NCBI RefSeq assembly: GCF_000012925.1
Contig: NC_007517.1
Span: 1,170,001-1,202,000 of the forward strand
DNA length: 32,000 nt
Source of the DNA: Geobacter metallireducens GS-15
GTDB taxonomy: Bacteria > Desulfobacterota > Desulfuromonadia > Geobacterales > Geobacteraceae
Reading direction: 5' to 3'
The position numbers were made by a program, and so were the translations under genes. Positions 2,793 through 25,947 of the stretch are shown piece by piece. Numbering within the stretch: the first letter of the stretch is position 1; every line of letters starts with the position of its first letter. The notes under the pieces are model-generated. The model was given only the letters and a program-made list of their open reading frames with translations. It ran no database searches and was not told the DNA's origin.

Positions 2793-3014
2793 CTACAGAA
2801 GCATCCGGATTTCGATGAACGGCGTCTCCGGCTTGCGCCGATGGTTTATGAATTCATTGTACTCAGTCAGATAATCGAGCCAGAGGTCGGCGTCGACGAC
2901 TCCATCCCGAAGCCACGGCGGCTGCTTCAATGCGGCCACAGCGGTCATGTCATCACGCAGTTCGGTGGAAGCTGCAGCCTTCTTCAATTCTTCACGAGCC
3001 TTCGGGCTGAGCAT
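2793..3014 (-). CDS. Small hypothetical protein (73 aa), overlaps the 3' end of the upstream nucleotidyltransferase gene
   Basis: ORF only. 23-nt overlap with 2992..3552 suggests co-translation. No motif recognised. Confidence 0.4.
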   Translation of the reverse strand: MLSPKAREELKKAAASTELRDDMTAVAALKQPPWLRDGVVDADLWLDYLTEYNEFINHRRKPETPFIEIRMLL

Positions 3015-3552: not shown

Positions 3553-3595
3553 GATGTATTGTCCTTAATGTTCTGCTTCAAGCCCTATCAGGCAG

Positions 3596-5617
3596 TTAAG
3601 TCCCTTGTCTGATGCTTACGTCAGTCGTCCCCCCCTGCTTCAGCGGCAGCACCACCCGGAAGGTGCTCCCCGTCCCCGCCGTGCTCTCCACCTGGATATT
3701 CCCCCCGTGATCCCTGACGATGCCGTAGGAAACCGCGAGGCCGAGGCCGGTCCCGTCGTTGCGGGTGGTGAAGAAGGGGCTGAAGATGTTCCTGAGGTTT
3801 TCGGGGGGGATGCCGGCCCCCGTGTCCTCCACGGCAACGGTACAGGTCCCGGCTTCGCTGTCCCGGGAGGTGCCCACCGTGAGAGTTCCCCCCTCCTTCA
3901 TGGCCTGGATGGCGTTGAGGATGAGGTTGGTGAAGACCTGGCGGAGCTGGTCGCCGTCTCCTTCCAGAAGGGGGATGTCGGCGGCGTAGTCCCGTCGGAT
4001 GTCGATGCCGGCAAGGGGAATCTGGTGCCCCACCTGCTTGAGGATCTCATCCAGGAGCCTGTTGACCTCCACCGTTCCCAGTTCCTTCTTCTGCTGGCGG
4101 GCGAACTTGAGGAGGCTCCCCACGATCCGCTCCACCCGTCCCGTCTGCTGGGCGATGGTGTCCACCTCCTCCCGGCTCGGGTCGTCCTCGGGGATCGCCA
4201 TCTGGAGCAGCTCCGTGTTCCCCCGGATGATCGCCAGGGGGTTGTTGATCTCGTGGGCCACGCCGGCGGCCAGCATGCCGATGTCGGCCAGCTTTGCCGC
4301 CCTGACCAGGTCCTCCTGGGTCTTCACAAGAAGGAGGTTCTTTTCCTCCAGCTGGGCCGTGCGGTCCAGCACCTTCTGCTCCAGGTCCCGGTTCAGCTTC
4401 CGGATGTCCTCCTCCCGCTGGGCGAGGGTTCTGGTCATCTGGGCGAACTCCCCTGCCAGGTCGCCGATCTCGTCGCGGGTCTGGATGGTTATGGCACTGT
4501 CGCGTTCGCCGGCGGTGATCCGGCGGGCTGCGTTTTCCAGTTCCTTGATGGGGCGGGCGAGGCGCGAGGCGATGAAGCTCGAAATGGCCAGCCCGATGAG
4601 GGAGCCGCAGAGGAGGACCACCCCGAAGATGAGGGATATCTCCCGTTTCATCTCCAGGAAGGGGCGTTCCATGACCCCCACGTAGAGGGATCCCACCGGC
4701 TTCCCCTGGAGGTTCAGGATCGGCTCGTAGGCGGAGTAGTACCAGTCGTTCACCACAAAGGCCCGTCCCACCCATTTCTCGCGGGCCAGGAGGACCCGGT
4801 TGTAGACCTCCTCCGAGAGCCTCGTGCCGATGGCCCGCCGTTCCGGCGAAAGGAGGACGTTGGTGGCTATCCGCAAGTCCCCCAGGAAGATGGTGGCGGT
4901 TCCCACGTCCTCCCCCTGGTAGCTCACCGCTTCGAAGACGATCTTCTTGATCCGGTCCACCAGGGTGTTGTTGCCGTTGAGGAGAACTCCTCCGTAGAGG
5001 GCACCCGCGACCGTCCCGGCCTGGTCCCGCACCGGCACCGATACCACCATGGCCATGCCGGAGCGCTCCACGGACTCGTCCCGCTGGCGGGCGTGGAGGG
5101 TGGGGAGGATCTGGATGGACGCCTTGGCGGCCAGCTCTTTCCCTTCTTTCACCAGTTCCCCGGGGGGGATCACCTCGGTGCCGGCGATGTGCTCGCCCTG
5201 CAACGCCCGGGAGACGATCTGGTCGTTGATCTTGCTGTCGCCGAAGGCCCCGTGGTTGCTGGCCCGGAAGACGACCCGGCCCGACCGGTCCACGGCGGTG
5301 AGGAAGTCGAGCCCTTCGCTGGCCATCCGCGGTGAGAGGAGGTTGTTGAGGGTCGCGCGGTCCCCCTGGGAGATAATCATGGAGGTGAAGGGGTTGGTGG
5401 CGGTGAACTTGACCACGTCCCGGATGTGGTCAAGTTCGCTCTGGTAGACGGCCCGGGCCGAGTTCAGGTCGGTGCGGACCTTTTCCTGGGCCTGGGTCAC
5501 GATCCGGGAGTTGATGATGGAGATGCCGATGACCCAGCAGATGACCGAGGCCACGAAGAGGGGGATGAGGGTGGCGAAGGTGAGCTTGAGGCGGATGGGG
5601 AAGCGCTTCGGTCCCAT
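3596..5617 (-). CDS. Membrane sensor histidine kinase (periplasmic Cache-like sensor, HAMP, HisKA, HATPase_c)
   Basis: Two TM segments flank a ~290 aa extracytoplasmic region. HAMP (ARPIKELENAARRITAGE...IGDLAGEF), H-box AGVAHEINNPLAII, G boxes DTGAGI, GTGLGLAVS. Start ATG directly abuts the stop of the upstream regulator gene (TGAATG). Confidence 0.88.
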   Translation of the reverse strand: MGPKRFPIRLKLTFATLIPLFVASVICWVIGISIINSRIVTQAQEKVRTDLNSARAVYQSELDHIRDVVKFTATNPFTSMIISQGDRATLNNLLSPRMASEGLDFLTAVDRSGRVVFRASNHGAFGDSKINDQIVSRALQGEHIAGTEVIPPGELVKEGKELAAKASIQILPTLHARQRDESVERSGMAMVVSVPVRDQAGTVAGALYGGVLLNGNNTLVDRIKKIVFEAVSYQGEDVGTATIFLGDLRIATNVLLSPERRAIGTRLSEEVYNRVLLAREKWVGRAFVVNDWYYSAYEPILNLQGKPVGSLYVGVMERPFLEMKREISLIFGVVLLCGSLIGLAISSFIASRLARPIKELENAARRITAGERDSAITIQTRDEIGDLAGEFAQMTRTLAQREEDIRKLNRDLEQKVLDRTAQLEEKNLLLVKTQEDLVRAAKLADIGMLAAGVAHEINNPLAIIRGNTELLQMAIPEDDPSREEVDTIAQQTGRVERIVGSLLKFARQQKKELGTVEVNRLLDEILKQVGHQIPLAGIDIRRDYAADIPLLEGDGDQLRQVFTNLILNAIQAMKEGGTLTVGTSRDSEAGTCTVAVEDTGAGIPPENLRNIFSPFFTTRNDGTGLGLAVSYGIVRDHGGNIQVESTAGTGSTFRVVLPLKQGGTTDVSIRQGT

Positions 5618-14088: not shown

Positions 14089-14265
14089 ATGTGTATTGCT
14101 GATTAGCGTCAGTCTTCCCCTTGGCGGTTACATAGTCCCCTTTCCCCGTCCAAACCATCACTTATCAGCAGGAGAACATATTGTGACTTGTTTTGTCGCA
14201 ATTGTAGGTTAGGATGGGTTCACTGTTTTTGATTTGAGTGTCCGGCGGTGTTCCTGGAGGGGAAG

Positions 14266-16434
14266 ATGAGAGAACGACCGGTGGCCCATCTGGCGGAAGA
14301 TGGGCGGGTTCATGGGCTTGAGGAGCATCTGTGCGGGACGGCGTATTTTGCCGCAGCTTTTGCCGGAGAGTTTGGGTGTGCAGGGTGGGGGAGGCTTGCC
14401 GGAATCTGGCATGACCTCGGGAAATATTCTCATGAATTCCAACGCTACATACTGGACGATGGGCCACGAACCGATCATTCATCTGCCGGGGCGTTGTATG
14501 CCGTCCAACGGCTTGGGAAACTCGGGAGAGTCATAGCCTACCTTGTGGCCGGTCATCATGCCGGTCTCCTTGACTGGGCTGACAATACTGGCTCTAATCT
14601 GGAACGACGTCTTACCTCAACCGATTTGTTAGCCCGCGTGGTCCTCTCGGAACTCCCTCCCAATCTGCTTGAACAGCAAATTCCAGCCGAACGCCCGAAA
14701 CCGCCAGCCACCGACCTGACAGCTTCACTCTGGCTGCGAATGCTGTTTTCCTGCCTCGTGGATGCCGATTTTCTCGATACCGAAGCGTTTTTCAATCCTG
14801 CACCGGTCGGCCAACGTAGCCGTTTCCCGACAATCGAAGAACTACTTCCCCTGTTCGATGCCTATATGGCCGACAAACAGGCCACCGCCTTTGATACTCC
14901 CGTCAACAGGCTGCGCGCTGAAATCCTTCGCCAATCCGTTGGTAAGGCTTTTCACTCACCGGGGTTTTTCTCCCTCACCGTTCCAACCGGCGGCGGCAAG
15001 ACCCTCTCGTCAATGGCTTTCGCCCTCAACCATGCCCGCGCCCACGGCAAGCGCCGCATCATTTACGTCATCCCCTATACCAGCATTATCGAACAGACCG
15101 CCGATCAGTTCCGGGAGGTATTCGGTGATTCGGTCGTGGAACACCACAGCAACGTGGCCCGTCAGGACAGTGACGAGGAAGGACAGCGCCTGCGCCTGGC
15201 GTCTGAAAACTGGGATGCACCGGTCATCGTCACCACCTCGGTTCAGTTCTTCGAATCGCTCTTTGCCAGCCGCACCAGCCGGTGCCGCAAGCTGCACAAC
15301 ATCGTCAACAGTGTGGTGGTCCTCGACGAGGCCCAACTACTCCCTCCGGATTTCCTTAATCCGATTCTCGAAGCCCTCAAGGAGTTGCAGAAGAACTACG
15401 GGACCACGGTAGTCATTTGTACGGCTACCCAGCCGGCCCTTGGTCCGCATCAATCGGCGAACTTCGACTTCAAGGGGATTCCCGAGATAACGGAAATTAT
15501 GGACGATCCGGCGAAGCTCCATGTGAAGCTCAAGAGGACTCGTATCCATAAACTGCGTGACCTTGCCCCGGTTTCATGGGATGAGCTTGCCGAGGAGCTT
15601 GAGTGGCAGGATTCAGCTCTCTGCATCGTCAACCGCCGCGACGATGCCCGCACGCTGTGGGAAAAGATGCCGAAGGGGACGATTCATCTCTCCGCGCTCA
15701 TGTGCGGAGCCCATCGGGCACGGAAGATCGCCGAGATCAAGGAGCGGCTCAGGAACAGGGAACCGACCCGTGTCATCAGCACCCAGCTGGTGGAAGCGGG
15801 GGTGGACGTGGATTTCCCTATTGTTTATCGGGCTGCGGCCGGCCTCGACTCAATTGCCCAGGCAGCCGGGCGGTGCAATAGGGAGGGGCTGCTGGAATGG
15901 GGGGAAGTATTCGTCTTTACCCCACCGTCAAAAATCCCGGCGGGGCACCTTCAGCAGGCGGCGGGGATCGGCATGCGGCTTCTGGCCGAAGCAGAAAGTG
16001 ACCCGTTGTCCATGGAGCGATTTGAGGCCTTTTTCAGGGAGTTCTACTGGATGCGCGGCGACCGCCTTGACCGTGAAAATATCATCGGCCTGTTGCGGAA
16101 CGATGTGGGGTTGCGATTCAGCTTCCGCACCGCGGCCAGAAAGTTTCAGCTTATTGACGAGAGTGCCCAGGCGCCGGTGATCGTCCAATTCGAGAATGAC
16201 GAACTGCTGTCTCTGCTGGAACGCCAGGGACCGGAGCGCTGGCTGCTGCGAAAACTTCAACGTTCGGTGGTCAACCTGCCGCGCTACCTGCACAATCGTT
16301 TGTTGTCTGAAGGGGCAATCCGGGAAAGGTGTCCCGGTATCTTCGTGCAGGCACATGGCGCCCTGTATCACCCTGATCTCGGTTTCTGTCCGGATAAGTC
16401 GATCGTGTACGAGCCTGACGAATTAATCGGATGA
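14266..16434 (+). CDS. cas3: Cas3 HD nuclease / SF2 helicase (type I)
   Basis: HD domain (HLCGTA..., GIWHDLGKYSHEFQ, VAGHHAGL). Helicase motifs (TVPTGGGKT, VVLDEAQ, CTATQP, STQLVEAGVDVDF, AGRCNREG). ATG 14266 is preferred over GTG 14248 because GGAGGGG lies 3-9 nt upstream. Confidence 0.9.
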   Translation: MRERPVAHLAEDGRVHGLEEHLCGTAYFAAAFAGEFGCAGWGRLAGIWHDLGKYSHEFQRYILDDGPRTDHSSAGALYAVQRLGKLGRVIAYLVAGHHAGLLDWADNTGSNLERRLTSTDLLARVVLSELPPNLLEQQIPAERPKPPATDLTASLWLRMLFSCLVDADFLDTEAFFNPAPVGQRSRFPTIEELLPLFDAYMADKQATAFDTPVNRLRAEILRQSVGKAFHSPGFFSLTVPTGGGKTLSSMAFALNHARAHGKRRIIYVIPYTSIIEQTADQFREVFGDSVVEHHSNVARQDSDEEGQRLRLASENWDAPVIVTTSVQFFESLFASRTSRCRKLHNIVNSVVVLDEAQLLPPDFLNPILEALKELQKNYGTTVVICTATQPALGPHQSANFDFKGIPEITEIMDDPAKLHVKLKRTRIHKLRDLAPVSWDELAEELEWQDSALCIVNRRDDARTLWEKMPKGTIHLSALMCGAHRARKIAEIKERLRNREPTRVISTQLVEAGVDVDFPIVYRAAAGLDSIAQAAGRCNREGLLEWGEVFVFTPPSKIPAGHLQQAAGIGMRLLAEAESDPLSMERFEAFFREFYWMRGDRLDRENIIGLLRNDVGLRFSFRTAARKFQLIDESAQAPVIVQFENDELLSLLERQGPERWLLRKLQRSVVNLPRYLHNRLLSEGAIRERCPGIFVQAHGALYHPDLGFCPDKSIVYEPDELIG

Positions 16435-16437
16435 GAC

Positions 16438-16465
16438 TTGACAATTATTTCAGTTTAGATAAAAG
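16438..16465 (+). promoter_or_regulatory. Sigma-70-type promoter candidate for the psi-array and cas5-cas8c-cas7
   Basis: TTGACA (16438-16443), 16 nt, TAAAAG (16460-16465). It begins 4 nt after the cas3 stop. Confidence 0.5.
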
Positions 16466-16564
16466 GTAAAACAGATTCCAGTAAATGGAAAAGGATTGAA
16501 ACAGTTTCGAAAACAGGTGGCAAAGTGAAAGCGCCCGCCTCAGTGGGCGGGCGCAGTAGTCTCC
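16466..16564 (+). ncRNA. crRNA-like mini-array (psiR1 - 25-nt psiS - psiR2), candidate cas-regulating RNA
   Basis: psiR1 16466-16502 keeps GTA and the terminal 11 nt AGGATTGAAAC of the array repeat. psiS 16503-16527 is AGTTTCGAAAACAGGTGGCAAAGTG. psiR2 16528-16564 keeps AGCGCCCGCCT/GGCGGGCG (stem intact, loop changed) and loses the 3' 11 nt. Confidence 0.6.
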
Positions 16565-16582
16565 GCGAAAGGAGGGAAATGT

Positions 16583-17266
16583 ATGGATATGGCATCCACC
16601 AAAAGCCGGATGCTGCGCCTCAAGGTCTGGGGCGACAACGCCTGCTTCACTCGGCCCGAAATGAAGGTGGAGCGGGTCTCCTATGATGTCATGACCCCAT
16701 CGGCGGCGAGGGGCGTTCTGGAGGCGATTCTCTGGAAACCGGCCATCCGATGGCAGGTGGACCGGATCGACGTGCTGAAGCCGATCCGCTGGGAGTCGGT
16801 GCGGCGCAACGAAGTGGGGAGCGTCATGTCTCCACGAACTAATGGGCTGTTCATCGAGGAACAGCGCCAGCAGCGGGCCGGCCTGTTCCTGCGGGATGTC
16901 GCTTATACCATCCACGCTTGGTTCGAGATGACCGTGCCGCCAGACGAAAGGAACAACGTCATCAAGTTCCAGGAAATGTTCATCTGTCGGGCATCCAAGG
17001 GAAAATGCTTCAACCAGCCGTACCTGGGGACACGGGAGTTCTCTGCCGGCTTCGAGCTAATTCCCCACGACCAATCCCTGCCGGAGCCGATTGTCGAGAC
17101 GCGCGACCTCGGTTTCATGCTCTACGATCTCTGCCACGACACCAGCAGGGATGAGGGGCACGTCCATACCTGCACCGACGGTTGCCGCCCTTCGTTCTTC
17201 CGGGCAGCTTTGAAGGATGGCAGAATGATGGTTCCGGCCCGTGACAGCGAGGAGGTGCGGCGATGA
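16583..17266 (+). CDS. cas5: Cas5c/Cas5d (type I-C crRNA endonuclease subunit)
   Basis: MLRLKVWGDNACFTRPEMKVERVSYDVMTPSAARGVLEAILWKP is the hallmark Cas5d N-terminus. AAGGAGG RBS. Confidence 0.92.
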   Translation: MDMASTKSRMLRLKVWGDNACFTRPEMKVERVSYDVMTPSAARGVLEAILWKPAIRWQVDRIDVLKPIRWESVRRNEVGSVMSPRTNGLFIEEQRQQRAGLFLRDVAYTIHAWFEMTVPPDERNNVIKFQEMFICRASKGKCFNQPYLGTREFSAGFELIPHDQSLPEPIVETRDLGFMLYDLCHDTSRDEGHVHTCTDGCRPSFFRAALKDGRMMVPARDSEEVRR

Positions 17267-19023
17267 TACTGCAGGCGTTGCATGGCCTTTATGTTCGTAA
17301 ACAGGATGAACTGCCGCCGGAAGGATTCGAGCAAAAGGAAATCCCTTTTCTGATTGTCCTCAATGGTGACGGAACCTTCGGCGACTTTCAGGATACGAGG
17401 AACAGGTCGGGAAAGAAACTGATCGCGCGTCAGTTCAGGGTGCCCAAGGACAGCGGTAGATCGGGGAAAAACGCATGGCAGAGCGCCAACCTGCTCTGGG
17501 ACCATTACGGCTATGTCCTTTGCTGGCCCAAATCGGATTCGGATGCCGACAAGGAGATGGCGCGGAAGCAGCACGGAACATTCGTTGAGAGGGTTGGAGA
17601 GCTTGCCGCTGCGTATCCTCAAGATAAAGGCGTTCAGGCGGTCATGCGCTTTTTGAAATCCGACGAGAGAGAAAAGTTACTTGAACATCCTGCGTGGGAG
17701 GAATGTCGGAAAATTCCAGGCTGTAATCTGAGCTTCAGGTTGTCCGATGAGTTAAGCCTTGTCTGTGAAAGCGATAACGTCAGGGAATTCGTCGCGAAAT
17801 CGTCCGCACAGGACGACGATGAAGATGACTCGACAACGGGGGACGTGGAAGGGATATGCCTCGTAACCGGCGAAAGTGCCACCGTGGCTCGACTGCATCC
17901 GCGAACGCCGATCATTGGGGCGAAGAGCAACGCGAAAATTGTCTCCTTTCAGAAAAACATGGGGTTCGACTCCTATGGCCGGCAGCAAAGCTACAACGCG
18001 CCGACCAGCAAGGGCGCCGCCTTTGCCTACACCACCGCCCTTAACCATCTGCTGGCCAAGGAATCAAGACAGAAACTGCTGATTGGCAGCGACACCATGG
18101 TTTTCTGGGCTGGTGAAAAGCACCGTGTCGAAGATCTTTTCGCCGATCTTTTCGGCGAACCGGCCAAGGAAAACCTCGATCAAACAACCCAGGCGATCCG
18201 TTCCCTCTACACCGCTCCACAAGCCGGCACACCGCCCCTCGACCACGATCTCACCCCGTTCTTCGTCCTCGGCCTTGCCCCCAACGCGGCCCGCATTGCC
18301 GTCCGTTTCTGGCACGCCGGAACGGTCGGCGAAACCGCCCGCCATATTCGACAGCACTTCGATGACTGCGCCGTCGTTCACGGCCCCAATCAGCCGGAAT
18401 ACCTTTCCCTTTTCCGGTTGCTGGTTTCCACGGCAATGCAGGGGAAGTCAGAGAACATCCCACCGAATCTGGCCGGCGACCTCATGAAATCGATTCTGGC
18501 GGGAACGCCCTATCCCCAGTCTTTGCTTTCGGCGGCGATTCGGCGCTGTCGTGCCGAGCGCGAAATCACCTACCCCCGCGTGTCTGTCATAAAGGCCGTA
18601 TTGGCGCGGGGAACAAGATACTACACATCAAACGAACAGGAGGTCGGCATGGCACTCGATGTAACCAATACCAATCCGGGCTATCGGCTCGGGCGGCTTT
18701 TCGCCGTACTGGAGAAGATCCAGGAAGAGGCAAGCCCCGGCATCAATGCCACCATCCGTGACCGCTTCTACGGCGCGGCTTCGGGAACGCCGGTGGCAGC
18801 ATTCCCGCACCTGATGAAGCTGAAGAACCACCATCTGGCAAAGCTCGAAAACCGGGGCCGGGCGGTCAATCTGGAAAAGATCGTCGGCGAAATCATGGAT
18901 GGTCTTGATGATTTTCCGACTCACCTGAGTCTCCAGGACCAGGGGCGCTTTGCTGTTGGCTACTATCATCAGCGCCAGGATTTTTTCAAAAAGAACGAAA
19001 CCACAACCAACGTGAATCCATAG
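17263..19023 (+). CDS. cas8c: Cas8c (Csd1) large subunit, type I-C
   Basis: 586 aa, ATGA-coupled to cas5. The position between cas5 and cas7 and its size are typical of Csd1. N-terminus MILQALHGLY.... Confidence 0.85.
   Translation: MILQALHGLYVRKQDELPPEGFEQKEIPFLIVLNGDGTFGDFQDTRNRSGKKLIARQFRVPKDSGRSGKNAWQSANLLWDHYGYVLCWPKSDSDADKEMARKQHGTFVERVGELAAAYPQDKGVQAVMRFLKSDEREKLLEHPAWEECRKIPGCNLSFRLSDELSLVCESDNVREFVAKSSAQDDDEDDSTTGDVEGICLVTGESATVARLHPRTPIIGAKSNAKIVSFQKNMGFDSYGRQQSYNAPTSKGAAFAYTTALNHLLAKESRQKLLIGSDTMVFWAGEKHRVEDLFADLFGEPAKENLDQTTQAIRSLYTAPQAGTPPLDHDLTPFFVLGLAPNAARIAVRFWHAGTVGETARHIRQHFDDCAVVHGPNQPEYLSLFRLLVSTAMQGKSENIPPNLAGDLMKSILAGTPYPQSLLSAAIRRCRAEREITYPRVSVIKAVLARGTRYYTSNEQEVGMALDVTNTNPGYRLGRLFAVLEKIQEEASPGINATIRDRFYGAASGTPVAAFPHLMKLKNHHLAKLENRGRAVNLEKIVGEIMDGLDDFPTHLSLQDQGRFAVGYYHQRQDFFKKNETTTNVNP
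18649..19023 (+). CDS. cas11c: Candidate internally translated small subunit Cas11c (124 aa, in frame within cas8c 3' end)
   Basis: A perfect AGGAGG (18638-18643) lies 5 nt upstream of in-frame ATG 18649. The product would be the C-terminal 124 aa of Cas8c, the size range expected for a Cas11-type small subunit. Confidence 0.5.
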   Translation: MALDVTNTNPGYRLGRLFAVLEKIQEEASPGINATIRDRFYGAASGTPVAAFPHLMKLKNHHLAKLENRGRAVNLEKIVGEIMDGLDDFPTHLSLQDQGRFAVGYYHQRQDFFKKNETTTNVNP

Positions 19024-19029
19024 GAGGAG

Positions 19030-19890
19030 ATGACCATGACCATTCAGAACCGCTATGACTTTGTACTGTTTTTCGACGTGAAGGACGGCAACCCCAACGG
19101 CGACCCTGACGCCGGCAACCTTCCCCGCATTGATCCGGAAACCGGCCATGGGCTGGTGACGGACGTCTGCCTGAAGCGGAAAGTGCGGAACTACGTTCAA
19201 TTGGATAAGGAGCTGTCGCAGGGGTATGACATCTTTGTCAAAGAGAAGGCGATTCTCAACAACCTGATTGATGAGGCCCACGAACAGGAAAACGTAAAGG
19301 CAAAGGAAAAGGGTGAAAAAACCGAGGCCGCTCGGCAGTTCATGTGTGGCAAATACTTCGACGTTCGGACTTTTGGTGCGGTCATGTCCACCGGCAAGAA
19401 CGCAGGCCAGGTTCGTGGCCCGGTCCAGTTGACCTTTGCCCGCAGCGTCGACCAGATCGTGCCGCTGGAGCACAGCATCACCCGCATGGCAGTGGCAACT
19501 CCTGCCGAGGCTGAGAAGCAGGATGGGGATAACCGCACCATGGGACGCAAATTTACCGTCCCCTATGCCCTCTATCGTTGCCACGGCTTCATTTCTGCAC
19601 CGCTGGCGGCCCAGACCGGTTTCAGCGAGGAAGACCTTGAACTTTTCTGGCAGTCATTGGTCAACATGTTCGAACACGATCGCTCGGCGGCCCGCGGCCA
19701 GATGTCGGCCCGCAAGCTGATCGTCTTCAAGCATGACTCTAAAATGGGGAACGCTCCGGCACACCACCTCTTTGATCTGGTCTCTGCCGAGGCATCAGAG
19801 ACGCCAGTCCGCAGCTTCGATCAGTACGATATCTGTGTGCCCACTCAGGAGAATATGCCGACAGGTGTGACGGTCGTCGAGAAGTTGTAA
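19030..19890 (+). CDS. cas7: Cas7c (Csd2) backbone subunit, type I-C
   Basis: [49 protein letters not shown] is the conserved Csd2 N-terminus. The true start may be ATG 19036, which has better spacing to GGAGGA at 19023-19028. Confidence 0.9.
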
Positions 19891-19899
19891 TGTTCTCTC

Positions 19900-20011
19900 G
19901 TAGGGGCAATTCATGAATTGCCCCTACACACCTACGGACATGCTGTAAATTGCCCCTATGCATCATCGACATACCAACCAATAACCTGGGCGAACACAGA
20001 TTCGCCCCTAC
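19900..20011. repeat. REP cluster 5' of the RAYT gene
   Basis: Perfect 28-nt palindrome GTAGGGGCAATTCATGAATTGCCCCTAC (19900-19927). Half-site TAAATTGCCCCTA (19947-19958). Second-class palindrome GGGCGAA-cacaga-TTCGCCC-CTAC (19988-20011). Confidence 0.75.
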
Positions 20012-20025
20012 GAATGACGAATTGA

Positions 20026-20565
20026 ATGACCTATAATCCCGATATTCACCATCGCCGTTCCATCCGCCTGCGGGAATATGATTATTCCTCAGGCGGTGTG
20101 TATTTCGTGACGATGTGTGTCCAAGGGCGTGAATGTCTGTTCGGCGGGGTGGTCGATGGGGTCATGCAGTTGAACGAGGCGGGGCGGATGGTGGTGGGAA
20201 CATGGCACGGGTTGGCGGAGCGGTTTCCCAACATGACGACGGACGAATTCATCGTCATGCCGAACCATGTTCACGGGATCATGGTGGTTCAAGAAAATGA
20301 AATTGGTGGTGGTGTAGGGGCAATTCATGAATTGCCCCTACAGGTGGCTCGTCGAAATATGGTGATCCCGAAAATAATCGGCTATTTCAAGATGAATACC
20401 GCTAAACAGATCAACATAATGCGCGGCAGTGCAGGCATTCCCGTATGGCAGCGCAATTATTACGAACGGGTTATCCGAGATGAAAGGGAATTTACCAGCA
20501 TCCGGGAATACATCCGTTGCAATCTCCTGAAATGGGCCGATGACGAAGAAAACCCAGACCCTTAG
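20026..20565 (+). CDS. REP-associated tyrosine transposase (RAYT, IS200/IS605-like Y1 HUH family)
   Basis: HUH motif MPNHVHGIM. C-terminal WQRNYYERVIRDEREF tyrosine motif. ~180 aa and flanked by REPs. Confidence 0.8.
   Translation: MTYNPDIHHRRSIRLREYDYSSGGVYFVTMCVQGRECLFGGVVDGVMQLNEAGRMVVGTWHGLAERFPNMTTDEFIVMPNHVHGIMVVQENEIGGGVGAIHELPLQVARRNMVIPKIIGYFKMNTAKQINIMRGSAGIPVWQRNYYERVIRDEREFTSIREYIRCNLLKWADDEENPDP
20314..20341. repeat. REP palindrome embedded in frame in the RAYT coding sequence
   Basis: 28/28 identical to 19900-19927. It encodes VGAIHELPLQ between the HUH and Tyr motifs. Confidence 0.75.
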
Positions 20566-21906
20566 CAGGCCGTTGAAAAACTCCTTCATTTCCAGGGCAA
20601 TCCCCTTCAAGGAGATCATTTTAGGCCGATAGTTGCATTGATCTCGCCCTATTCGTTCTTTGAAACTTTGCTTTTTACCTTGATTTGGCCTTTTCGGGCG
20701 GGCTTTGCCACCAAGAGTCGCATTATTCCCCTGATTATGCCGTTTTCGTCCCGAGATTGCGCAGCCGGACCAGATTGTATGCCGCAATGGCCATGGTGAA
20801 GTACCAGTCGACTTTCGCTATTCCCCGATGCCGGGTCTTGCGGAGATTGCCGACAGTCTTGAGCCAGCCGAAGGCCTCTTCGATCCGCTTGCGAATCCTC
20901 AGGCTGGTTTTGTAGCCTTCGTGGCGGGTAGTCCTGCCATCGATGGCTGAGCGGCGGTTAGCGGTGTTCTGAGCAATGTGAGGGGTTACCTTGAGTGCTC
21001 GCAGATCTTTGACGCACTCTTTGGTGTCGTAGCCCTTGTCGCCGCCCATGGTGATCCGCTTGTTACCGGCGACGTCTGCGATCATCTCGACTGCGGTATC
21101 CCGCTCAGCGGTACCGGTTGCGTGGGTGATTCTGGCATCGACGATGATCCCGTTGCGGTTCTCCATGAGAGCGTGCCCGTGGTAACTGAGCTTCGCCTCT
21201 TTGCCCGAGCTTCTCCTGGCAATCCGCGCATCCGGATCGGTGGTGGAGGCATGGGTGTCGTTTTTGAGCTTTTCGCCGTGGAAATCACGCTCCGTGTTAC
21301 GACCCACTGGAGGCTTTGGTCCATCCTTGGGCCGAAAGCTCTTGATAGAAGCCCACGCCTCGATGAGGGTGCCGTCAACGCTGAAGTGCTCGTCGGACAA
21401 CAGCTTTGCCCTTCGGGCCTGCTCAACTACTTTTGCCAAGAGCAGCCGTGCCACGTCGGTATCGATCAACCGCTCCAGGTTGGTGGAAAACGAGGAGTGG
21501 TCCCAGACCTTCTCGTCCAGGGCCAATCCCACAAACCAGCGGAACAGGATGCTGTAGCTGATCTGCTCCACCAGCAGACGGTTACTCCTGATGGTGTACA
21601 GCGCCTGAAGCAGAAGTGCTTTAAGCAACTGCTCAGGAGGAATCGAGGGCCGGCCGGTGTGGGAGTACATGGCCTCGAATTGCGGGCTGAGCTCTGCAAG
21701 GGCCTTATCCACCATCGCCCTGATCGACCGCAAGGGGTGGTCCTTCGGGACGTACGACTCAGGGGAGAGATAACAGAACAGAGCTTCGGTTTTTGTCTCG
21801 GCGCCGCGCATAACTTTTCTCCTGTAAATTCAGATTGTTACGCGTAAAAATATAGCACAGTTCGCTAACTTATTGAATCAAAAAGGTTTAGTTTTTCAAC
21901 AACCTG
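20566..21906 (-). mobile_element. IS5-family insertion sequence (1341 bp) with 17-bp terminal inverted repeats and 4-bp TTAG target duplication
   Basis: Left end CAGGCCGTTGAAAAACT (20566-20582). Reverse complement of the right end CAGGTTGTTGAAAAACT (21890-21906), 15/17 identical. TTAG at 20562-20565 and 21907-21910. Confidence 0.85.
20735..21811 (-). CDS. IS5-family DDE transposase
   Basis: 358 aa. The N-terminal region (FCYLSPESYVPKDHPLRSIR...PSIPPEQLLKALLLQALYTIRSNRLLVEQISYSILFRWFVGL) is typical of IS5/IS1182-type transposases. The C-terminal part is a DDE domain. Confidence 0.9.
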   Translation of the reverse strand: MRGAETKTEALFCYLSPESYVPKDHPLRSIRAMVDKALAELSPQFEAMYSHTGRPSIPPEQLLKALLLQALYTIRSNRLLVEQISYSILFRWFVGLALDEKVWDHSSFSTNLERLIDTDVARLLLAKVVEQARRAKLLSDEHFSVDGTLIEAWASIKSFRPKDGPKPPVGRNTERDFHGEKLKNDTHASTTDPDARIARRSSGKEAKLSYHGHALMENRNGIIVDARITHATGTAERDTAVEMIADVAGNKRITMGGDKGYDTKECVKDLRALKVTPHIAQNTANRRSAIDGRTTRHEGYKTSLRIRKRIEEAFGWLKTVGNLRKTRHRGIAKVDWYFTMAIAAYNLVRLRNLGTKTA

Positions 21907-21907
21907 T

Positions 21908-21973
21908 TAGGGGCAATTCACGCATTGCCCTAATGATGACACAACGATTGGGCAATTCATGAATTGCCCCTAC
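21908..21973. repeat. REP pair 3' of the RAYT unit (separated from it by the IS)
   Basis: TAGGGGCAATTCACGCATTGCCCTA (21908-21932, degenerate) and TTGGGCAATTCATGAATTGCCCCTAC (21948-21973). Confidence 0.7.
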
Positions 21974-21983
21974 AAGGATTGTT

Positions 21984-22598
21984 ATGAACGAACCCACCGA
22001 CCCCATCATGATCTCCGCCCTGGAGCATTACAGCTACTGCCCGCGTCAGTGCGCCCTGATCCACGTGGAGCAGGTGTGGGGCGAAAATCTCTACACCATG
22101 CGCGGCCGCGACGTGCATGAGAACGTGGATATGGAGTCGTCCCATGACGTTGCGGGCATCCGCTACGAGCGGGCGCTCCCCCTCTGGTCGAAACGGCTTA
22201 ACCTTATTGGCAAGGCCGATCTGGTGGAATTTCACGGTGAAACTCCCTATCCGGTGGAGTACAAATCGGGCAGGCACCGGGACGGCCGCCATGAGGCGCT
22301 GCAACTCTGTGCCCAAGCCATCTGCCTCGAAGAGATGTTCGGGGTTGCGGTGGAGAAGGGAGCGCTCTTCTGGCATGGTTCGCGGGAGAGGAGGGAAGTT
22401 GTTTTTACCGACGTAATACGGGAGCACGTAGAGAAAGCGGCAGAAGGTGTCTTTGCACTGATTGCGCAATCCACCGTCCCGCCGCCGGTGAACGACAAGC
22501 GCTGCACCCATTGCTCACTGAAGGAATCATGTCTTCCCGCCGTCGTTGCCGAGAAGGACAGAAGCCGCAGGGTGGCGCGGGAATTGTTTGAAATTTGA
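21984..22598 (+). CDS. cas4: Cas4 RecB-like nuclease with 4-Cys cluster
   Basis: ISALEHYSYCPRQCAL at the N-terminus, central D..EYK motif (DLVEF...VEYKSG), C-terminal CTHCSLKESC. Confidence 0.88.
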   Translation: MNEPTDPIMISALEHYSYCPRQCALIHVEQVWGENLYTMRGRDVHENVDMESSHDVAGIRYERALPLWSKRLNLIGKADLVEFHGETPYPVEYKSGRHRDGRHEALQLCAQAICLEEMFGVAVEKGALFWHGSRERREVVFTDVIREHVEKAAEGVFALIAQSTVPPPVNDKRCTHCSLKESCLPAVVAEKDRSRRVARELFEI

Positions 22599-22608
22599 GG
22601 GGGGATGG

Positions 22609-23445
22609 ATGGAAACGAAGTTGGTTGTTTTTCAGAGTAAGGAGATTAGGCGCCTACTGGTGGATAATGTCTGGTTCTTTGCCGTTGTTGATGTGATAGC
22701 CGCATTGACGGACAGCGACAAGCCCCGCGACTACTGGTATCGCATGAAAAAGCGGGAACTTGATGCCAGTGGAATCGAGTTGTCGACATTTTGTCGACAA
22801 CTGAAACTGGAGTCTTCGGATGGGAAAAAATATCTGACGGAGATGGCCAGCACCGAAGGCCTTTTCCGCATCATCCAGTCCATCCCGTCTCCCAAGGCCG
22901 AGCCCTTCAAACGCTGGCTGGCAAAGGTTGGCTACGAGCGGGTCCAGGAGATCGAAGACCCCGAACTGGCCACGAAGCGCATCCGCGAGTTGTACAAGGC
23001 CAAGGGATATTCAGAAGCCTGGGTCGAGAAGCGGATGCGTGGCATCGCCATTCGGGCGGAGCTGACGGAGGAGTGGAAAAACCGGGGAGTGAAGGGGGAG
23101 CCTGAGTACGCCATCCTTACCGCCGAAATCTCCAAGGCCGCCTTCGGCATGACCCCCGGCGAGTACAAGCAGTTCAAGGGGCTCGGACGTGAGAACCTGC
23201 GGGACCACATGACCGACCTGGAGCTGATCTTCTCGATGCTGGGGGAGGCGGCCACGACGGAGATTGCACGCAAGCAGGATGCTCAAGGCTTTCCCGAAAA
23301 CAAGGTGGCGGCCCACAAGGGGGGGCGGATTGCCGGCGAGGCACGGGAAAAGCTGGAGGTGGAAACCGGCGAACGGGTGGTGACGTCAGAAAATTTCCTG
23401 GTGGAACCAGAAAGTCGCAAGCGGCTGAAAGGGAAAAAGCCATGA
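22609..23445 (+). CDS. Bro-N domain / DinD-like (antirepressor-type) protein inserted between cas4 and cas1
   Basis: N-terminus VVFQSKEIRRLLVDNVWFFAVVDVIAALTDSDKPRDYWYRMK fits the Bro-N pattern (F..g..iR....g..WF.a.Dv..aL). ATG 22609 is preferred over 22546 (GAGGGGGG RBS, begins 10 nt after the cas4 stop). Its stop overlaps the cas1 ATG (ATGA). Confidence 0.8.
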   Translation: METKLVVFQSKEIRRLLVDNVWFFAVVDVIAALTDSDKPRDYWYRMKKRELDASGIELSTFCRQLKLESSDGKKYLTEMASTEGLFRIIQSIPSPKAEPFKRWLAKVGYERVQEIEDPELATKRIRELYKAKGYSEAWVEKRMRGIAIRAELTEEWKNRGVKGEPEYAILTAEISKAAFGMTPGEYKQFKGLGRENLRDHMTDLELIFSMLGEAATTEIARKQDAQGFPENKVAAHKGGRIAGEAREKLEVETGERVVTSENFLVEPESRKRLKGKKP

Positions 23446-24476
23446 AACAGATCCTCAACACCCTCTACGTCATGACCCAGGGGGCCTATGTCTGCCTCGA
23501 CCACGAAACGGTGAAGGTGGAGGTGAAGGGCGCACTCCAGATGCAGGTGCCGCTTCACCATCTGGGGGCCATCGTCACCATGGGGAACGTCATGATGAGT
23601 CCCTTCATCATGGCGCGTTGTGCCGAGGACGGCCGGGCGCTGGTGATCCTCGACCGTAACGGCAAGTTCAAGTGCCGCGTCGTCGGCAAGACCAGCGGCA
23701 ACGTGCTCCTGCGCCAGACCCAGTACGAGGCGGTGCGGGATAGGGAGCGCTCCGCGGCAATCGCCCGGAACATGGTGGCGGGGAAGGTTAAGAATGCCCG
23801 CCAGATCCTCATGCGGGGAGCGCGCGAAACCACCGACGCTGATGAAAGCGCCGTCCTGCGAAAAGCGGGCGACACCCTGGCCGATGCGCTCTTCCATCTC
23901 AAGGACGCGACGGATATCGACCATGTGCGCGGATTGGAGGGGGAGGCGGCCAACGCCTATTTCCAGGTGTTCGACCGGATGGTGAAGGAAGAGGAGCGCC
24001 CGGCCTTCAGGATGAACGGCCGCAACCGCCGGCCTCCGCTCGATCCCATGAACGCACTTCTCTCCTTCCTCTATACGCTGCTTCTCAACGACTGCATCAG
24101 CGCCGTAGAAGGAGTGGGGCTCGATTCCCAGATGGGCTTTCTTCATGTCCTACGTCCGGGGCGGCCTTCCCTCGGGCTCGACATCATGGAAGAATTCCGA
24201 GCGGTGCTGGCGGACCGGCTGGCCCTTACCCTCATCAACCGGAAGCAGATCACTGAAAAACATTTCGAGGTGCGGCCCGGCGGGGCCACCTATCTGGACG
24301 ATGCGGGCCGGAAGGAAGTCATCATGGCCTATCAGAAGCGGAAACAGGATGAATTTCACCATCCGGTCCTCGACCAGAAAGTTCCCTTCGGGCTCTTACC
24401 CCACGTTCAAGCCCGGCTGCTGGCCCGGCATCTGCGGGGGGACCTGGAGCAGTACACGCCGGTGCTCTATTCATAG
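23442..24476 (+). CDS. cas1: Cas1 integrase (type I-C)
   Basis: 344 aa, MKQILNTLYVMTQGAYVCLDHETVKV. Conserved NALLSFLYTLL, GLDSQMGFLH and D..EEFR motifs. Confidence 0.93.
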   Translation: MKQILNTLYVMTQGAYVCLDHETVKVEVKGALQMQVPLHHLGAIVTMGNVMMSPFIMARCAEDGRALVILDRNGKFKCRVVGKTSGNVLLRQTQYEAVRDRERSAAIARNMVAGKVKNARQILMRGARETTDADESAVLRKAGDTLADALFHLKDATDIDHVRGLEGEAANAYFQVFDRMVKEEERPAFRMNGRNRRPPLDPMNALLSFLYTLLLNDCISAVEGVGLDSQMGFLHVLRPGRPSLGLDIMEEFRAVLADRLALTLINRKQITEKHFEVRPGGATYLDDAGRKEVIMAYQKRKQDEFHHPVLDQKVPFGLLPHVQARLLARHLRGDLEQYTPVLYS

Positions 24477-24576: not shown

Positions 24577-24870
24577 ATGTGGGTAGTTGTCTGCTATGAC
24601 GTGAACACCGAAACCAGAGAGGGTCGCCGGCGACTGCGACGGGTGGCCCAGGCGTGCAAGAACTATGGCCAGCGGGTCCAGAAGTCGGTGTTTGAATGTC
24701 AGGTCAATGAGATGAAGTTTGAGGATCTGCGGCGAAAATTGCTTCGGGAAATCAACAAGGAACAGGACAACCTCCGCTTCTATCGCCTGACAGAGCCCCG
24801 GGAGAACCATGTGGAAACCCATGGACTCACGCGAACGATCTTCTTTGATGATGAGCCGTTGATCGTTTGA
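24577..24870 (+). CDS. cas2: Cas2
   Basis: MWVVVCYDVNTETREGRRRLRRVAQACKNYGQRVQKSVFEC is the canonical Cas2 ferredoxin-fold N-terminus. 97 aa. The 24145 upstream extension in the ORF track overlaps cas1 out of frame. Confidence 0.9.
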   Translation: MWVVVCYDVNTETREGRRRLRRVAQACKNYGQRVQKSVFECQVNEMKFEDLRRKLLREINKEQDNLRFYRLTEPRENHVETHGLTRTIFFDDEPLIV

Positions 24871-25047: not shown

Positions 25048-25947
25048 GTAGCGCCCGCCTACATAGGCGGGCGAGGATTGAAACACTATGCGCTCCACTT
25101 TGGCCCTGATGTTGGCCGTGTAGCGCCCGCCTACATAGGCGGGCGAGGATTGAAACCGCCAAATCCGCCGCGCTCCACTCCCGGCAGAAGTTGTCGTAGC
25201 GCCCGCCTACATAGGCGGGCGAGGATTGAAACCAAGTCCGACTTGAAGATTTGTACTGTCGGCGCCGTAGCGCCCGCCTACATAGGCGGGCGAGGATTGA
25301 AACACCATCACCCCAGGGATCGGCACGGCCCGCATCGGTAGCGCCCGCCTACATAGGCGGGCGAGGATTGAAACTTGGTGCCCCAGGAAGAGTGGAAACC
25401 GCTGATCAGCGTCCGGTAGCGCCCGCCTACATAGGCGGGCGAGGATTGAAACTCGACCAACACCCCCGGCACGGTCATGTCGAAGGGTAGCGCCCGCCTA
25501 CATAGGCGGGCGAGGATTGAAACGACACCGGCCTCGACGGGTGGGACGCCGCCGCCTGTAGCGCCCGCCTACATAGGCGGGCGAGGATTGAAACGGGAGG
25601 GACGGTGATATCGTGCAGGGAATACCAAGTAGCGCCCGCCTACATAGGCGGGCGAGGATTGAAACACCTGATGCTGCCCCTGCGGTCTGCCGTGCGCGGG
25701 TAGCGCCCGCCTACGCAGGCGGGCGAGGATTGAAACAGGTCATTGGACCGGGCGAAGATGCGGCCCTGAGTAGCGCCCGCCTACGCAGGCGGGCGAGGAT
25801 TGAAACGGAATCAGTTCGCCGCGTTTTGTCCGAAGGTTAGTAGCGCCCGCCTACGCAGGCGGGCGAGGATTGAAACACACAGCCTCTCAATATACCGATA
25901 TCTCCTATTTGTAGCGTCCGCCTACGTAGGCCGGTGAAGCAACAGAG
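25048..25947 (+). CRISPR. CRISPR array: 12 intact 37-nt repeats + 1 degenerate terminal repeat, 12 spacers
   Basis: Repeat GTAGCGCCCGCCTACATAGGCGGGCGAGGATTGAAAC. Starts at 25048, 25120, 25196, 25267, 25338, 25416, 25487, 25558, 25629, 25700, 25770, 25840, and degenerate at 25911. Repeats 10-12 have loop TACGCA. The ATTGAAAC 3' end is typical of type I-C. Spacer lengths are 35, 39, 34, 34, 41, 34, 34, 34, 34, 33, 33, 34. Confidence 0.97.

Follow-up and report, generated by a model that had tools for sequence, protein, structure and literature searches.

PDC-S13 is a phage defence candidate of PADLOC; the genes from which it was derived were all embedded in BREX, DISARM, or type I restriction systems, and CRISPR is mentioned nowhere in the paper describing it (Payne et al., bioRxiv 10.1101/2024.01.29.577857). 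The E. coli gene dinD is LexA-regulated (PMC6590174), and its SOS-induced product DinD inhibits postsynaptic RecA filaments (Uranga et al. 2011, as cited in PMC4457935). Induced by damage, DdrC of Deinococcus radiodurans forms a homodimer that traps nicks or double-strand ends in pairs (PMC11347143). Here we describe a gene of Geobacter metallireducens GS-15 that encodes a 278-aa protein of the PDC-S13 family with a Bro-N domain, a DinD-like C-terminal domain and a DdrC-like predicted fold. As identified by its open reading frame and translation, the gene occupies positions 22609..23445 on the plus strand of the window, i.e. the whole stretch of 32,000 nt that was analysed, and is located between cas4 and cas1 of a type I-C CRISPR locus. 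Because its close relatives lie immediately upstream of acquisition genes in many unrelated I-B, I-C, and I-E systems, we consider it a probable, hitherto unrecognised accessory gene of CRISPR. In the literature, no report was found that links Bro-N, DinD, or PDC-S13 genes to cas4-cas1; a prior listing in the supplementary tables of the survey of CRISPR-linked genes by Shmakov et al. is possible.

The host locus contains a type I-C effector module (14248..19890), in which Pfam matches identified cas3 (14248-16434), cas5c (16583-17266), cas8c (17263-19023), and cas7 (19030-19890), all on the plus strand. An insertion (19900..21974) separates this module from the adaptation module and comprises REP palindromes at 19900, 20314, 21907, and 21946 found by repeat analysis, a RAYT-like gene on the plus strand (20026-20565; NF047646, 57 bits), and an IS5 transposase gene on the minus strand (20735-21811; NF033581, 293 bits). 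At the same site, G. grbiciae has only a REP pair in a gap of 90 nt. The adaptation module on the plus strand consists of cas4 (21984..22598, 204 aa; PF01930, 93.9 bits; TIGR00372, 125 bits), the 278-aa gene, type I-C cas1 (23442..24476, 344 aa; TIGR03640, 524.6 bits over the full length), and cas2 (24577..24870, 97 aa), whose translation is 100% identical to the G. grbiciae Cas2 that bears PF09827. Repeat analysis placed a CRISPR array of 13 repeats of 37 nt, the last of them degenerate, at 25048..25947 on the plus strand; counted from the cas2 side, the spacers are 35, 39, 34, 34, 41, 34, 34, 34, 34, 33, 33, and 34 nt long. No phage genes were found in the neighbourhood of the 278-aa gene.

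The open reading frame extends from an ATG at 22609 to a TGA at 23443-23445 and is separated by 10 nt from cas4, which ends with a TGA at 22596-22598. A Shine-Dalgarno-like G-run, GAGGGGGG (22597..22604, plus strand), overlaps the cas4 stop codon and is positioned 4 nt 5' of the ATG; by sequence comparison, a canonical GGAGG occupies this position in loci L001, L002, L004, L005, and L007. At the distal end, the stop codon overlaps the cas1 start codon in the sequence ATGA (23442..23445, plus strand), an arrangement indicative of translational coupling that is kept in the window, in L001, L002, L004, L005, L006, and L007, and in the I-E locus L013. Across the junctions, a 4-nt overlap or a gap of at most 8 nt to the downstream adaptation gene is conserved. 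Since an identical 278-aa product is on record for G. metallireducens and homologues number more than 8000, the gene is real. No terminator-like site was found on the plus strand between cas4 and cas2, which is compatible with a single cas4-to-cas2 transcript but falls short of proving it, and no sigma-70-like promoter for the adaptation module was detected across 19.8-25.1 kb. A preliminary description of this DNA had reported an open reading frame filling the cas4-cas1 gap, with its own ribosome-binding site and an ATGA overlap, and had regarded the gene as an integral part of the cas4-cas1-cas2 unit; all these elements are present, and the gene is indeed a co-oriented and tightly coupled member of that unit.

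Profile searches predict two domains. A Bro-N domain of alpha/beta type, as had been proposed for the N-terminus, covers residues 12-106 (22642..22926, plus strand) and matches PF02498 with 39.2 bits against a gathering threshold of 25.6 bits, spanning model positions 1-92 of 96; strands and helices of the structural model fall at residues 15-89. It is followed by an all-helical domain at residues 107-262 (22927..23394, plus strand), which is common to E. coli DinD according to reciprocal HMM matches: DinD matches the subfamily HMM of the window's protein at 2.2e-16 over DinD residues 122-250, and conversely, residues 134-234 of the window's protein match the DinD-type HMM at 2.8e-5. A direct hhalign comparison of the C-terminal domain with DinD gave E=0.003, and within this domain, which is present in 3354 clusters at 50% identity, the motif KGL...RDHM.DLEL is conserved. 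The designation 'DinD-like' thus applies to the C-terminal domain at profile level; over the full length, the resemblance was not significant by BLASTP (E=0.6). The strongest family assignment was obtained with the PDC-S13 HMM PDLC04920 (E=2.6e-119), which aligned residues 3-271 to model positions 5-274 of 286 and hence the full length; phrog_15286 matched at E=8e-96. Of 59 invariant residues, 15 are Lys/Arg and 10 are aromatic. NCBIfam contained no matching family, and PDB sequences were matched neither by the single protein nor, with E values up to 10 allowed, by the family profile. Pfam yielded Bro-N only and no KilA-C/Ant domain, and matches to PHROG Ant families were weak (E 2e-4 or worse), the strongest being confined to the Bro-N region. 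No recombinase or nuclease domain was found in the protein. Judged from these profiles, the product is a predicted two-domain DNA-binding protein consisting of Bro-N followed by the helical domain common to DinD.

A confident AF2 model of the full-length protein (pLDDT 86) had as its sole significant PDB fold matches six DdrC chains (E 2.6e-7 to 7e-6, probability 1.0, TM 0.41-0.51, ~240 aligned columns). The N-terminal domain of DdrC alone matched the model weakly (E=0.86), and a model of the C-terminal domain by itself was of low quality (pLDDT 64), its DdrC matches being non-significant. In a viral structure library, the only matches were of low TM and confined to the Bro-N N-terminal domain. 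The kinship to DdrC suggested by the model is restricted to the level of the fold.

All 11 sampled homologues with at least 80% identity are located at adaptation-module junctions, directly upstream of adaptation genes. The slots occupied are cas4|X|cas1 and cas7|X|cas4 in I-C loci and cas6e|X|cas1 in I-E loci, and a copy of 50% identity resides at cas4|X|cas1b of an Arcobacter type I-B locus. Among 80 species-level loci, adaptation genes follow the homologue directly in 16-17, and of ~11 I-C loci picked by Cas1 similarity, 3-4 carry the gene or its remnant. The gene was never found within the effector module or after cas2, either in the 11 close homologues or in the species-level loci. The chance of a random gene adjoining cas1 is, by our estimate, below ~1 in 1000. 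With dozens of loci in three subtypes (I-B, I-C, I-E), the arrangement is clearly not peculiar to this strain, a possibility that the preliminary description had kept in view. The co-location with cas genes is recurrent and non-random across independent lineages and subtypes, and by these sequence comparisons, the clade of the window's gene is bound to the 5' flank of the adaptation modules, where it is co-translated with Cas4 and/or Cas1.

The history of the gene conflicts with that of Cas1. Cas1 of L007 is 95% identical to that of the window, but its Bro protein only 80%; L023 and L009 (Cas1 89%) carry the gene in different slots, as do L005 and L066 (Cas1 85%); and the I-E copies, whose Cas1e proteins are ~82% identical to each other, interleave with the I-C copies. 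This conflict indicates repeated re-placement of the gene, and we infer at least eight independent placements beside adaptation genes. Together with the three slots, it rules out that the gene was inserted once in an ancestor and inherited vertically thereafter. Purifying selection on the gene is strong and equal to that on cas1, with equally low dN/dS values of 0.02-0.07 at a dS that matches that of cas1 and exceeds 1. The arrays beside the gene reach 42-82 repeats, and strong purifying selection and such large, regular arrays argue against a harmful parasite.

The gene is dispensable, since sister loci lack it and one retains only a remnant. In the I-C loci L088, L089, L091, L101, and L102, cas4 abuts cas1 without the gene, in keeping with the canonical order stated earlier for type I-C; in L098 the gene has been lost and a degraded remnant is all that is kept. 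Unrelated cargo was found at these CRISPR junctions as well, namely RhuM, 23S-rRNA-IVP, and VapC/MazE, HigB-like, and YoeB-like toxin-antitoxin genes. RhuM of L087 occupies exactly the cas4|X|cas1 slot of the window, likewise with an ATGA overlap; no homology to the gene was detected (hhalign probability 0.9%). The cas4-cas1 junction and the effector-adaptation junction act as hotspots for cargo, and since they collect unrelated cargo, permissiveness of the junction could explain part of the pattern. Distant relatives (62-70% identity) occur in type III, type IIG, or DISARM-like restriction operons or in non-defence contexts, and tight coupling to the downstream gene is also seen among them (16/41 cases). 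The dispensability, the other cargo at the junction, and the distant members inside restriction-modification operons had not been foreseen. The family was found in 4 of 50,697 phage records, all of them short unannotated contigs, which rules out a phage origin; an origin typical of phages, as stated earlier for proteins of this kind, is true of the Bro-N domain, but not of the family. It is also rare in plasmid records (22/72,556).

Of the three roles that had been put forward for the gene, i.e. acquisition accessory, regulator, and element perturbing Cas4-Cas1 stoichiometry, the first suits the comparative data best. In the reading we prefer, to which we assign a probability of about 0.45, the protein would be a generic DNA-lesion- or DNA-end-binding helper of acquisition, dispensable and co-translated with Cas4/Cas1. 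PDC-S13 members are found inserted singly in the operons of immune systems that target DNA, and the protein would bind DNA lesions or ends rather than a particular Cas protein; it may aid acquisition by holding or marking the broken DNA from which Cas4-Cas1-Cas2 makes prespacers, and more distant relatives may act likewise on restriction-enzyme breaks. An action on DNA instead of on a specific Cas partner is suggested because no alignment column was found that separates I-C-embedded from I-E-embedded copies and because Geobacter and archaeal copies are 62-70% identical. A more far-reaching version, which we regard as unlikely, would make the clade a genuine Cas accessory, a DdrC-like nick or end sensor handing broken DNA to Cas4-Cas1-Cas2 (I-B, I-C) or Cas1-Cas2 (I-E) and thereby linking breakage to prespacer selection; relatives in restriction-modification operons would do likewise at restriction breaks, and DinD and DdrC would be solitary damage-induced members of one ancient break-binding superfamily. 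Somewhat doubtful, yet to be taken seriously, is the view that the gene is an autonomous embedded passenger, a stand-alone defence gene or selfish PDC-S13 cargo that borrows transcription at permissive immune-operon junctions and travels with a mobile adaptation module, having no role in acquisition. The very definition of PDC-S13 by embedding in BREX, DISARM, and type I restriction systems is in line with this view, as are the members inside type III, type IIG, and DISARM-like operons, the RhuM, 23S-IVP, and toxin-antitoxin genes at the same junctions, the variable presence between close relatives including the degraded remnant, and the replacement of the allele within a conserved cas4/cas1 frame. 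Moreover, just two residue positions distinguish CRISPR-embedded copies from others, and tight downstream coupling is a habit of the whole family. A mere passenger would, however, not be expected to sit at adaptation junctions in 11/11 close homologues, in two subtypes with non-homologous flanks, to avoid the effector module and the position after cas2, and to recur in a deep I-B instance of 50% identity. Neither a recombinase or nuclease domain nor flanking repeats were found that would account for targeted insertion, and purifying selection has equalled that on cas1 over a dS of more than 1.

Control of the adaptation genes by a Bro-N regulator, perhaps damage-responsive like SOS-regulated dinD, is improbable. 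Bro-N is a DNA-binding domain that occurs in phage regulators, the weak Ant-type PHROG matches point the same way, and E. coli dinD is under LexA (PMC6590174). Furthermore, the IS5/RAYT insertion cuts the adaptation module of the window off from the effector operon, and separate control could therefore be useful. An identity of 62-70% across bacterial phyla and archaea, and of at least 80% between copies in I-C and in I-E hosts whose upstream DNA is unrelated, is nevertheless ill-suited to an operator-binding protein and makes a sequence-specific regulator unlikely. In the junction comparison no conserved motif was seen upstream of the gene, which, in addition, lies inside the operon and is translationally coupled rather than divergently transcribed. 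No support was found for an SOS link: with a Geobacter-type consensus (GGTTN2CN4GN3ACC, at most one mismatch), no LexA box was detected at 14-25 kb, and elsewhere in the window this consensus gave 4 matches compared to 9.2 expected by chance. Still less probable is that separation of cas4 from cas1 by the gene alters stoichiometry or coupling and so degrades Cas4-dependent prespacer trimming. An excess of long spacers was indeed observed, as the earlier proposal of a stoichiometry-perturbing element would have it: spacers of at least 38 nt accounted for 7/124 in cas4|Bro|cas1 arrays vs 1/207 in arrays that are Bro-less or of the cas7|Bro|cas4 type (pooled Fisher p=0.005; per-array Mann-Whitney p=0.019 at a 37-nt cut-off), with arrays that are not independent, and the newest five spacers of the window include those of 39 and 41 nt. 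The excess is weak, however. Cas1 identity among the window, L001, L002, and L086 is 94-99%, and a lineage effect on spacer length is therefore possible; L092 has the gene but lacks long spacers, more than 90% of the spacers in cas4|Bro|cas1 arrays measure 33-36 nt, and in I-E arrays adjoining the gene the spacers uniformly measure 32 nt. The very low dN/dS together with repeated independent gain argues that the arrangement is selected rather than merely tolerated.

How CRISPR systems choose and capture spacer DNA is only partly understood and depends on DNA breaks and host repair nucleases. A conserved, predicted DNA-binding protein whose translation is coupled to that of Cas1 or Cas4 in three subtypes of type I, and which has a DNA-break sensor as its sole structural relative, is a testable candidate for linking breaks to acquisition. 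Our findings extend the principle of 'guilt by embedding', so far applied to restriction-type systems, to the adaptation modules of CRISPR, and they may provide a context for DinD of E. coli and DdrC of Deinococcus, both orphan proteins. Even if the gene were only a passenger, it would still mark the mobility of adaptation modules and correct a widespread 'prophage antirepressor' annotation.

Compared with the known systems, the window's protein matches the HMM of PDC-S13 over the full length, and both are single co-oriented genes inside a multi-gene immune operon. In contrast to the described PDC-S13 hosts, the host here is a CRISPR adaptation module, and a whole clade is bound to that position. 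E. coli DinD (PcsA), with 274 aa, has a similar two-domain layout and a C-terminal domain homologous at profile level, including the motif KGL...DHM..EL, and PADLOC puts both proteins in PDC-S13. The N-terminal domain of DinD, however, matches PDC-S05, whereas that of the window's protein is Bro-N and matches PDC-S04; only the C-terminal domains cross-match; dinD is a solitary LexA-regulated chromosomal gene, while the window's gene is part of a cas operon and has no LexA box of the Geobacter-type consensus nearby. D. radiodurans DdrC (PDB 7QVB, 7UDI, 8U0G), the sole significant structural match, resembles the model in its layout, in which ~100 residues at the N-terminus form an alpha/beta domain for DNA recognition and ~130-160 residues at the C-terminus a helical domain, and each of the two proteins is tied to DNA damage via relatives. 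It differs in that identity amounts to 14-16%, no sequence-profile match was found and TM reaches only 0.41-0.51, and DdrC is described as Deinococcus-specific and has no association with immune systems. Phage Bro/Ant antirepressors have Bro-N (PF02498) in common with the window's protein, which is why databases use the names 'prophage antirepressor' and 'BRO family protein' for it; the phage proteins carry a KilA-C or ANT C-terminal domain, for which the window's protein has no match, and its family is essentially absent from phage genomes. Finally, the gene resembles other adaptation-module cargo such as RhuM and the four-helix-bundle 23S-rRNA-IVP in being sporadic, dispensable, and lodged between core cas genes, but the positional fidelity of the Bro/DinD-C clade, with 11/11 close homologues and three subtypes, is far stronger.

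The window contains a complete type I-C CRISPR-Cas locus, in which an effector module of cas3 (14248-16434), cas5c (16583-17266), cas8c (17263-19023) and cas7 (19030-19890) is followed by an adaptation module of cas4 (21984-22598), a 278-aa ORF (22609-23445, the Bro gene), cas1 (23442-24476) and cas2 (24577-24870), and by a CRISPR array of 13 repeats (25048-25947). A database protein recorded for Geobacter metallireducens is identical to the ORF product. The ORF starts 10 nt downstream of the cas4 stop codon and is preceded by the G-run GAGGGGGG (22597-22604), and its TGA overlaps the cas1 start codon as ATGA; all sequence features given in the preliminary description are thus present. No terminator-like sites were found on the plus strand from cas4 to cas2. 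The two modules are split by an insertion of approximately 2.1 kb (19900-21974), which carries a RAYT-like tyrosine transposase gene on the plus strand (20026-20565), a minus-strand gene for an IS5-family transposase (20735-21811) and the REP palindrome GTAGGGGCAATTCATGAATTGCCCCTAC in four copies (at 19900, 20314, 21907 and 21946), one of them within the RAYT ORF. The corresponding cas7-cas4 gap of G. grbiciae measures 90 nt and holds a REP pair only. The adaptation module of the window probably needs a promoter of its own; none was detected for it.

Ten homologues 80-97% identical to the window protein were combined with the window into a set of eleven loci (L numbers designate homologous or comparison loci from other genomes and metagenomes). 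In 11/11 loci the Bro gene occupies a junction of the adaptation module: between cas4 and cas1 of type I-C systems in seven (the window, G. grbiciae, two metagenome lineages, Desulforhopalus, L127 and L128), between cas7 and cas4-cas1 of type I-C systems in two (L121 and L129), and downstream of cas6e and upstream of cas1e of type I-E systems in two (L123 and L125). A species-level scan was performed on one genome per species, and the best 80 loci (62-88% identity) were taken; these belonged to Desulfobacterota, Planctomycetota, candidate-phyla-radiation bacteria, Gammaproteobacteria, Chlamydiota, Bacteroidota and several archaeal phyla. Among these 80, the gene lies between cas4 and cas1 in 4, between cas7 and cas4 in 5, and between cas6e and cas1e of type I-E in 5, including Bacteroidota (Marinifilum) and Bacteriovoracaceae genomes. 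It is followed by only a cas1e remnant in 2, and 1 locus is ambiguous; no CRISPR arrays were present in the remaining loci. According to the RefSeq annotation of the Arcobacter cloacae plasmid pACLO, a homologue of just 50% identity separates cas4 from cas1b of a type I-B system. In a converse survey, Cas1 similarity was the sole criterion for choosing loci. Three independent lineages (L086, L097 and the L092 group) carry Bro; L088, L089, L091, L101 and L102 lack it, with cas4 abutting cas1. In a fourth lineage, the seemingly 'empty' cas4-cas1 junction of L098 (1747-1893) retains a degraded stretch of approximately 60-100 nt that matches the 3' end of Bro and is interrupted by stop codons, indicating secondary loss of the gene. 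Occurrence in this strain only, which the preliminary description named as refuting, is contradicted by these copies beside adaptation genes of types I-C, I-E and I-B.

Several of these loci display further peculiarities. L050 (921-8033) and L065 (7001-7880) contain an intact Bro gene followed by an N-terminal cas1e remnant only; the pair lies directly downstream of an 81-repeat array with a different repeat in L050 and upstream of a type I-C cas3 in L065. Effector-side genes are fragmented in L125 (cse1, cas7) and L127 (cas8c, cas7, cas4) and Bro and cas2 are intact, with cas1 shortened in L125 and full-length in L127; here the module seems to outlast the interference genes. In two archaeal loci and one from Smithella (L015:7001-7237, L082:7001-7246 and L080:4247-4726), a partial second Bro copy of about 85 to 160 aa, 44-54% identical, directly precedes the full-length copy. 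A DUF559 (Vsr-like endonuclease) region and Cas4 are called as a single 331-aa product in L002 (6994-7989), whose Cas1 is 96% identical to that of the window; this product may reflect a gene fusion or a wrongly called start codon. The pACLO locus (L116) encodes an unannotated 'ATP-binding protein' (419 aa, 4230-5489) between cas3 and cas4.

Overall, Bro and Cas1 identities were correlated (Spearman 0.74), but some loci conflict sharply with this trend. Cas1 and Cas4 of L007 are 95% and 88% identical to those of the window and its Bro just 80%, and this Bro is closest to copies of other loci, an I-E locus included. Bro occupies different slots in L023 and L009 (Cas1 89% identical) and in L005 and L066 (85%). 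Copies embedded in I-E loci are interspersed among those embedded in I-C loci, and the Cas1e proteins are mutually about 82% identical. From these comparisons we infer that Bro was placed or replaced independently at least eight times, always directly 5' of cas1 or cas4-cas1. Within the clade of the window, dN/dS was 0.02-0.07 for Bro, 0.03-0.08 for cas1 and 0.08-0.24 for cas4, and the synonymous divergence of Bro and cas1 agreed (e.g. 1.40 versus 1.49), indicating long co-residence of both genes under strong constraint. Copies from Geobacter, candidate-phyla-radiation bacteria, Chlamydiota, Nanoarchaeota, Woesearchaeota and Methanoperedens share 62-70% identity (L005-L084). Among non-essential proteins of this length (278 aa), such identity is unusually high, and it implies that horizontal transfer has been frequent and constraint very strong. 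Seven I-C loci and the I-E locus L013 retain the 4-nt stop/start overlap with cas1, and most other Bro junctions have a gap of at most 8 nt or an overlap. Variants of 287-288 aa (L001:8830-8866; also L004, L007, L086 and L097) have an additional 30 nt near the 3' end, missing from the window, L002 and L005, that contain an inverted repeat (CCCCCC...GGGGGG) right before the cas1 start codon and could modulate translational coupling to cas1.

The protein contains a Bro-N domain at residues 12-106 (PF02498, 39.2 bits, exceeding the cut-off) and matches over its full length the PADLOC model PDLC04920 of PDC-S13 (E=2.6e-119), as well as PHROG 15286, which has no assigned function. PDC-S13 is one of 145 candidate phage defence families defined by embedding within BREX, DISARM or type I restriction operons, in a study that does not mention CRISPR (bioRxiv 10.1101/2024.01.29.577857). 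Database names of the 'prophage antirepressor' type are due to the Bro-N domain. An origin as a phage gene was ruled out: only 4 of 50,697 phage records matched the family, all short unannotated contigs with at most 54% identity, and no KilA-C/ANT domain was found by Pfam. Among plasmids, 22 of 72,556 matched. The earlier designation 'DinD-like' holds for the C-terminal domain: residues 122-250 of E. coli DinD match PDLC04920 (2.2e-16), residues 134-234 of the Bro protein match the DinD-type model (2.8e-5), and both share a KGL...DHM..EL region (hhalign E=0.003). It does not hold for the N-terminal domains, which fall in different models; DinD is the prototype of a sister PDC-S13 model, and pairwise BLASTP between the two proteins gave no significant match. 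Used as sole query, the C-terminal domain retrieved 3354 clusters at 50% identity, most of which are roughly 280-aa proteins sharing this domain layout. A confident AlphaFold model from 85 sequences (pLDDT 86.3) predicts an alpha/beta N-terminal and an all-helical C-terminal domain. In the PDB, its significant fold matches were confined to six DdrC chains from Deinococcus radiodurans (E 2.6e-7 to 7e-6, probability 1.0; about 240 columns, 14-16% identity, TM 0.41-0.51). DdrC is a damage-induced homodimer that captures pairs of nicks or double-strand ends, its N-terminal domain recognizing lesions and its helical C-terminal domain binding DNA (PMC11347143). The link between the predicted Bro structure and DdrC is at fold level only: no PDB sequence matched the family profile, the DdrC N-terminal domain alone matched weakly (E=0.86), and the model of the Bro C-terminal domain alone was too poor for a domain-level comparison. 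The Bro protein is basic (pI 9.0), and its 59 invariant residues include 15 Lys/Arg and 10 aromatic residues.

Beside Bro, arrays are regular and large: I-E arrays reach 82 repeats, with spacers nearly all of 32 nt, and I-C arrays reach 42 repeats, indicating that the insertion of Bro does not disable acquisition. Spacers of at least 38 nt were more frequent in cas4|Bro|cas1 arrays (7/124) than in other arrays (1/207; pooled Fisher p=0.005; per-array Mann-Whitney with a 37-nt cut-off, p=0.019), an excess that we regard as a lead and not a result, since the arrays cluster by phylogeny and long spacers are missing from one array with Bro. The five newest spacers of the window include 39 and 41 nt, the older ones measuring 33-34 nt. 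Its three oldest intact repeats (25700, 25770 and 25840) read ...CCTACGCAGG... and the nine newer ones ...CCTACATAGG...; the last repeat (25911) is degenerate.

The Bro protein looks biochemically alike in whichever system hosts it. Copies at least 80% identical accompany both Cas1c and Cas1e, themselves only distantly related, suggesting a target common to all hosts rather than a particular Cas partner; most plausibly, this target would be DNA lesions or ends. We tentatively favor, at a probability of roughly 0.45, that Bro is a dispensable helper that binds DNA breaks or ends and is co-translated with Cas4 and Cas1. Such a protein would hold or mark broken DNA, the source of prespacers. A sequence-specific regulator is argued against by the high conservation across phyla while the upstream DNA of each host is unrelated, and no Geobacter-type LexA box was found near the locus.

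Under the main rival reading, which is somewhat less probable, Bro would be autonomous, an embedded gene of defensive or selfish nature that rides on a mobile adaptation module. In its favor, the gene is dispensable and was lost in one lineage, and the same junctions host other cargo. The cas4-cas1 slot of L087, whose Cas1 is 93% identical to that of the window, is occupied by a full-length RhuM-family gene (2976-4004; PF13310, 383 bits) with an ATGA overlap onto cas1, and truncated RhuM genes adjoin Bro in two further loci (L092:2889-3374 and L010:6437-6997), accompanied by toxin-antitoxin genes. The toxin-antitoxin genes at these junctions are of the VapC (PIN)/MazE, HigB-like/HTH and YoeB-like types. 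Genes for 23S-rRNA-IVP four-helix bundles (PF05635; L090:3528-3899, L121:7535-7942 and L123:5913-6419) occupy differing slots (cas4|IVP|cas1, cas1|IVP|cas2 and Bro|IVP|cas1e) and seem to be a second small gene family attracted to adaptation modules. More distant Bro family members reside between mod and res of type III restriction operons, between SNF2/PLD helicase and type IIG enzyme genes, beside DrmD-like genes or in contexts without defence genes. In these other loci, too, coupling to the downstream gene is often tight, with 16/41 same-strand neighbors lying within 20 nt. No alignment column separates I-C-embedded from I-E-embedded copies, and only two positions, K237 and T253, are enriched in CRISPR-embedded ones.

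Both the gene family and the embedding phenomenon are already known. We found no report of an association between Bro and adaptation modules in the literature, a search that did not extend to the supplementary tables published with the main survey of genes linked to CRISPR. As far as found, the linkage of a whole clade to CRISPR adaptation modules of three subtypes, the repeated re-placement beside adaptation genes and the predicted DdrC-like fold appear to be new.
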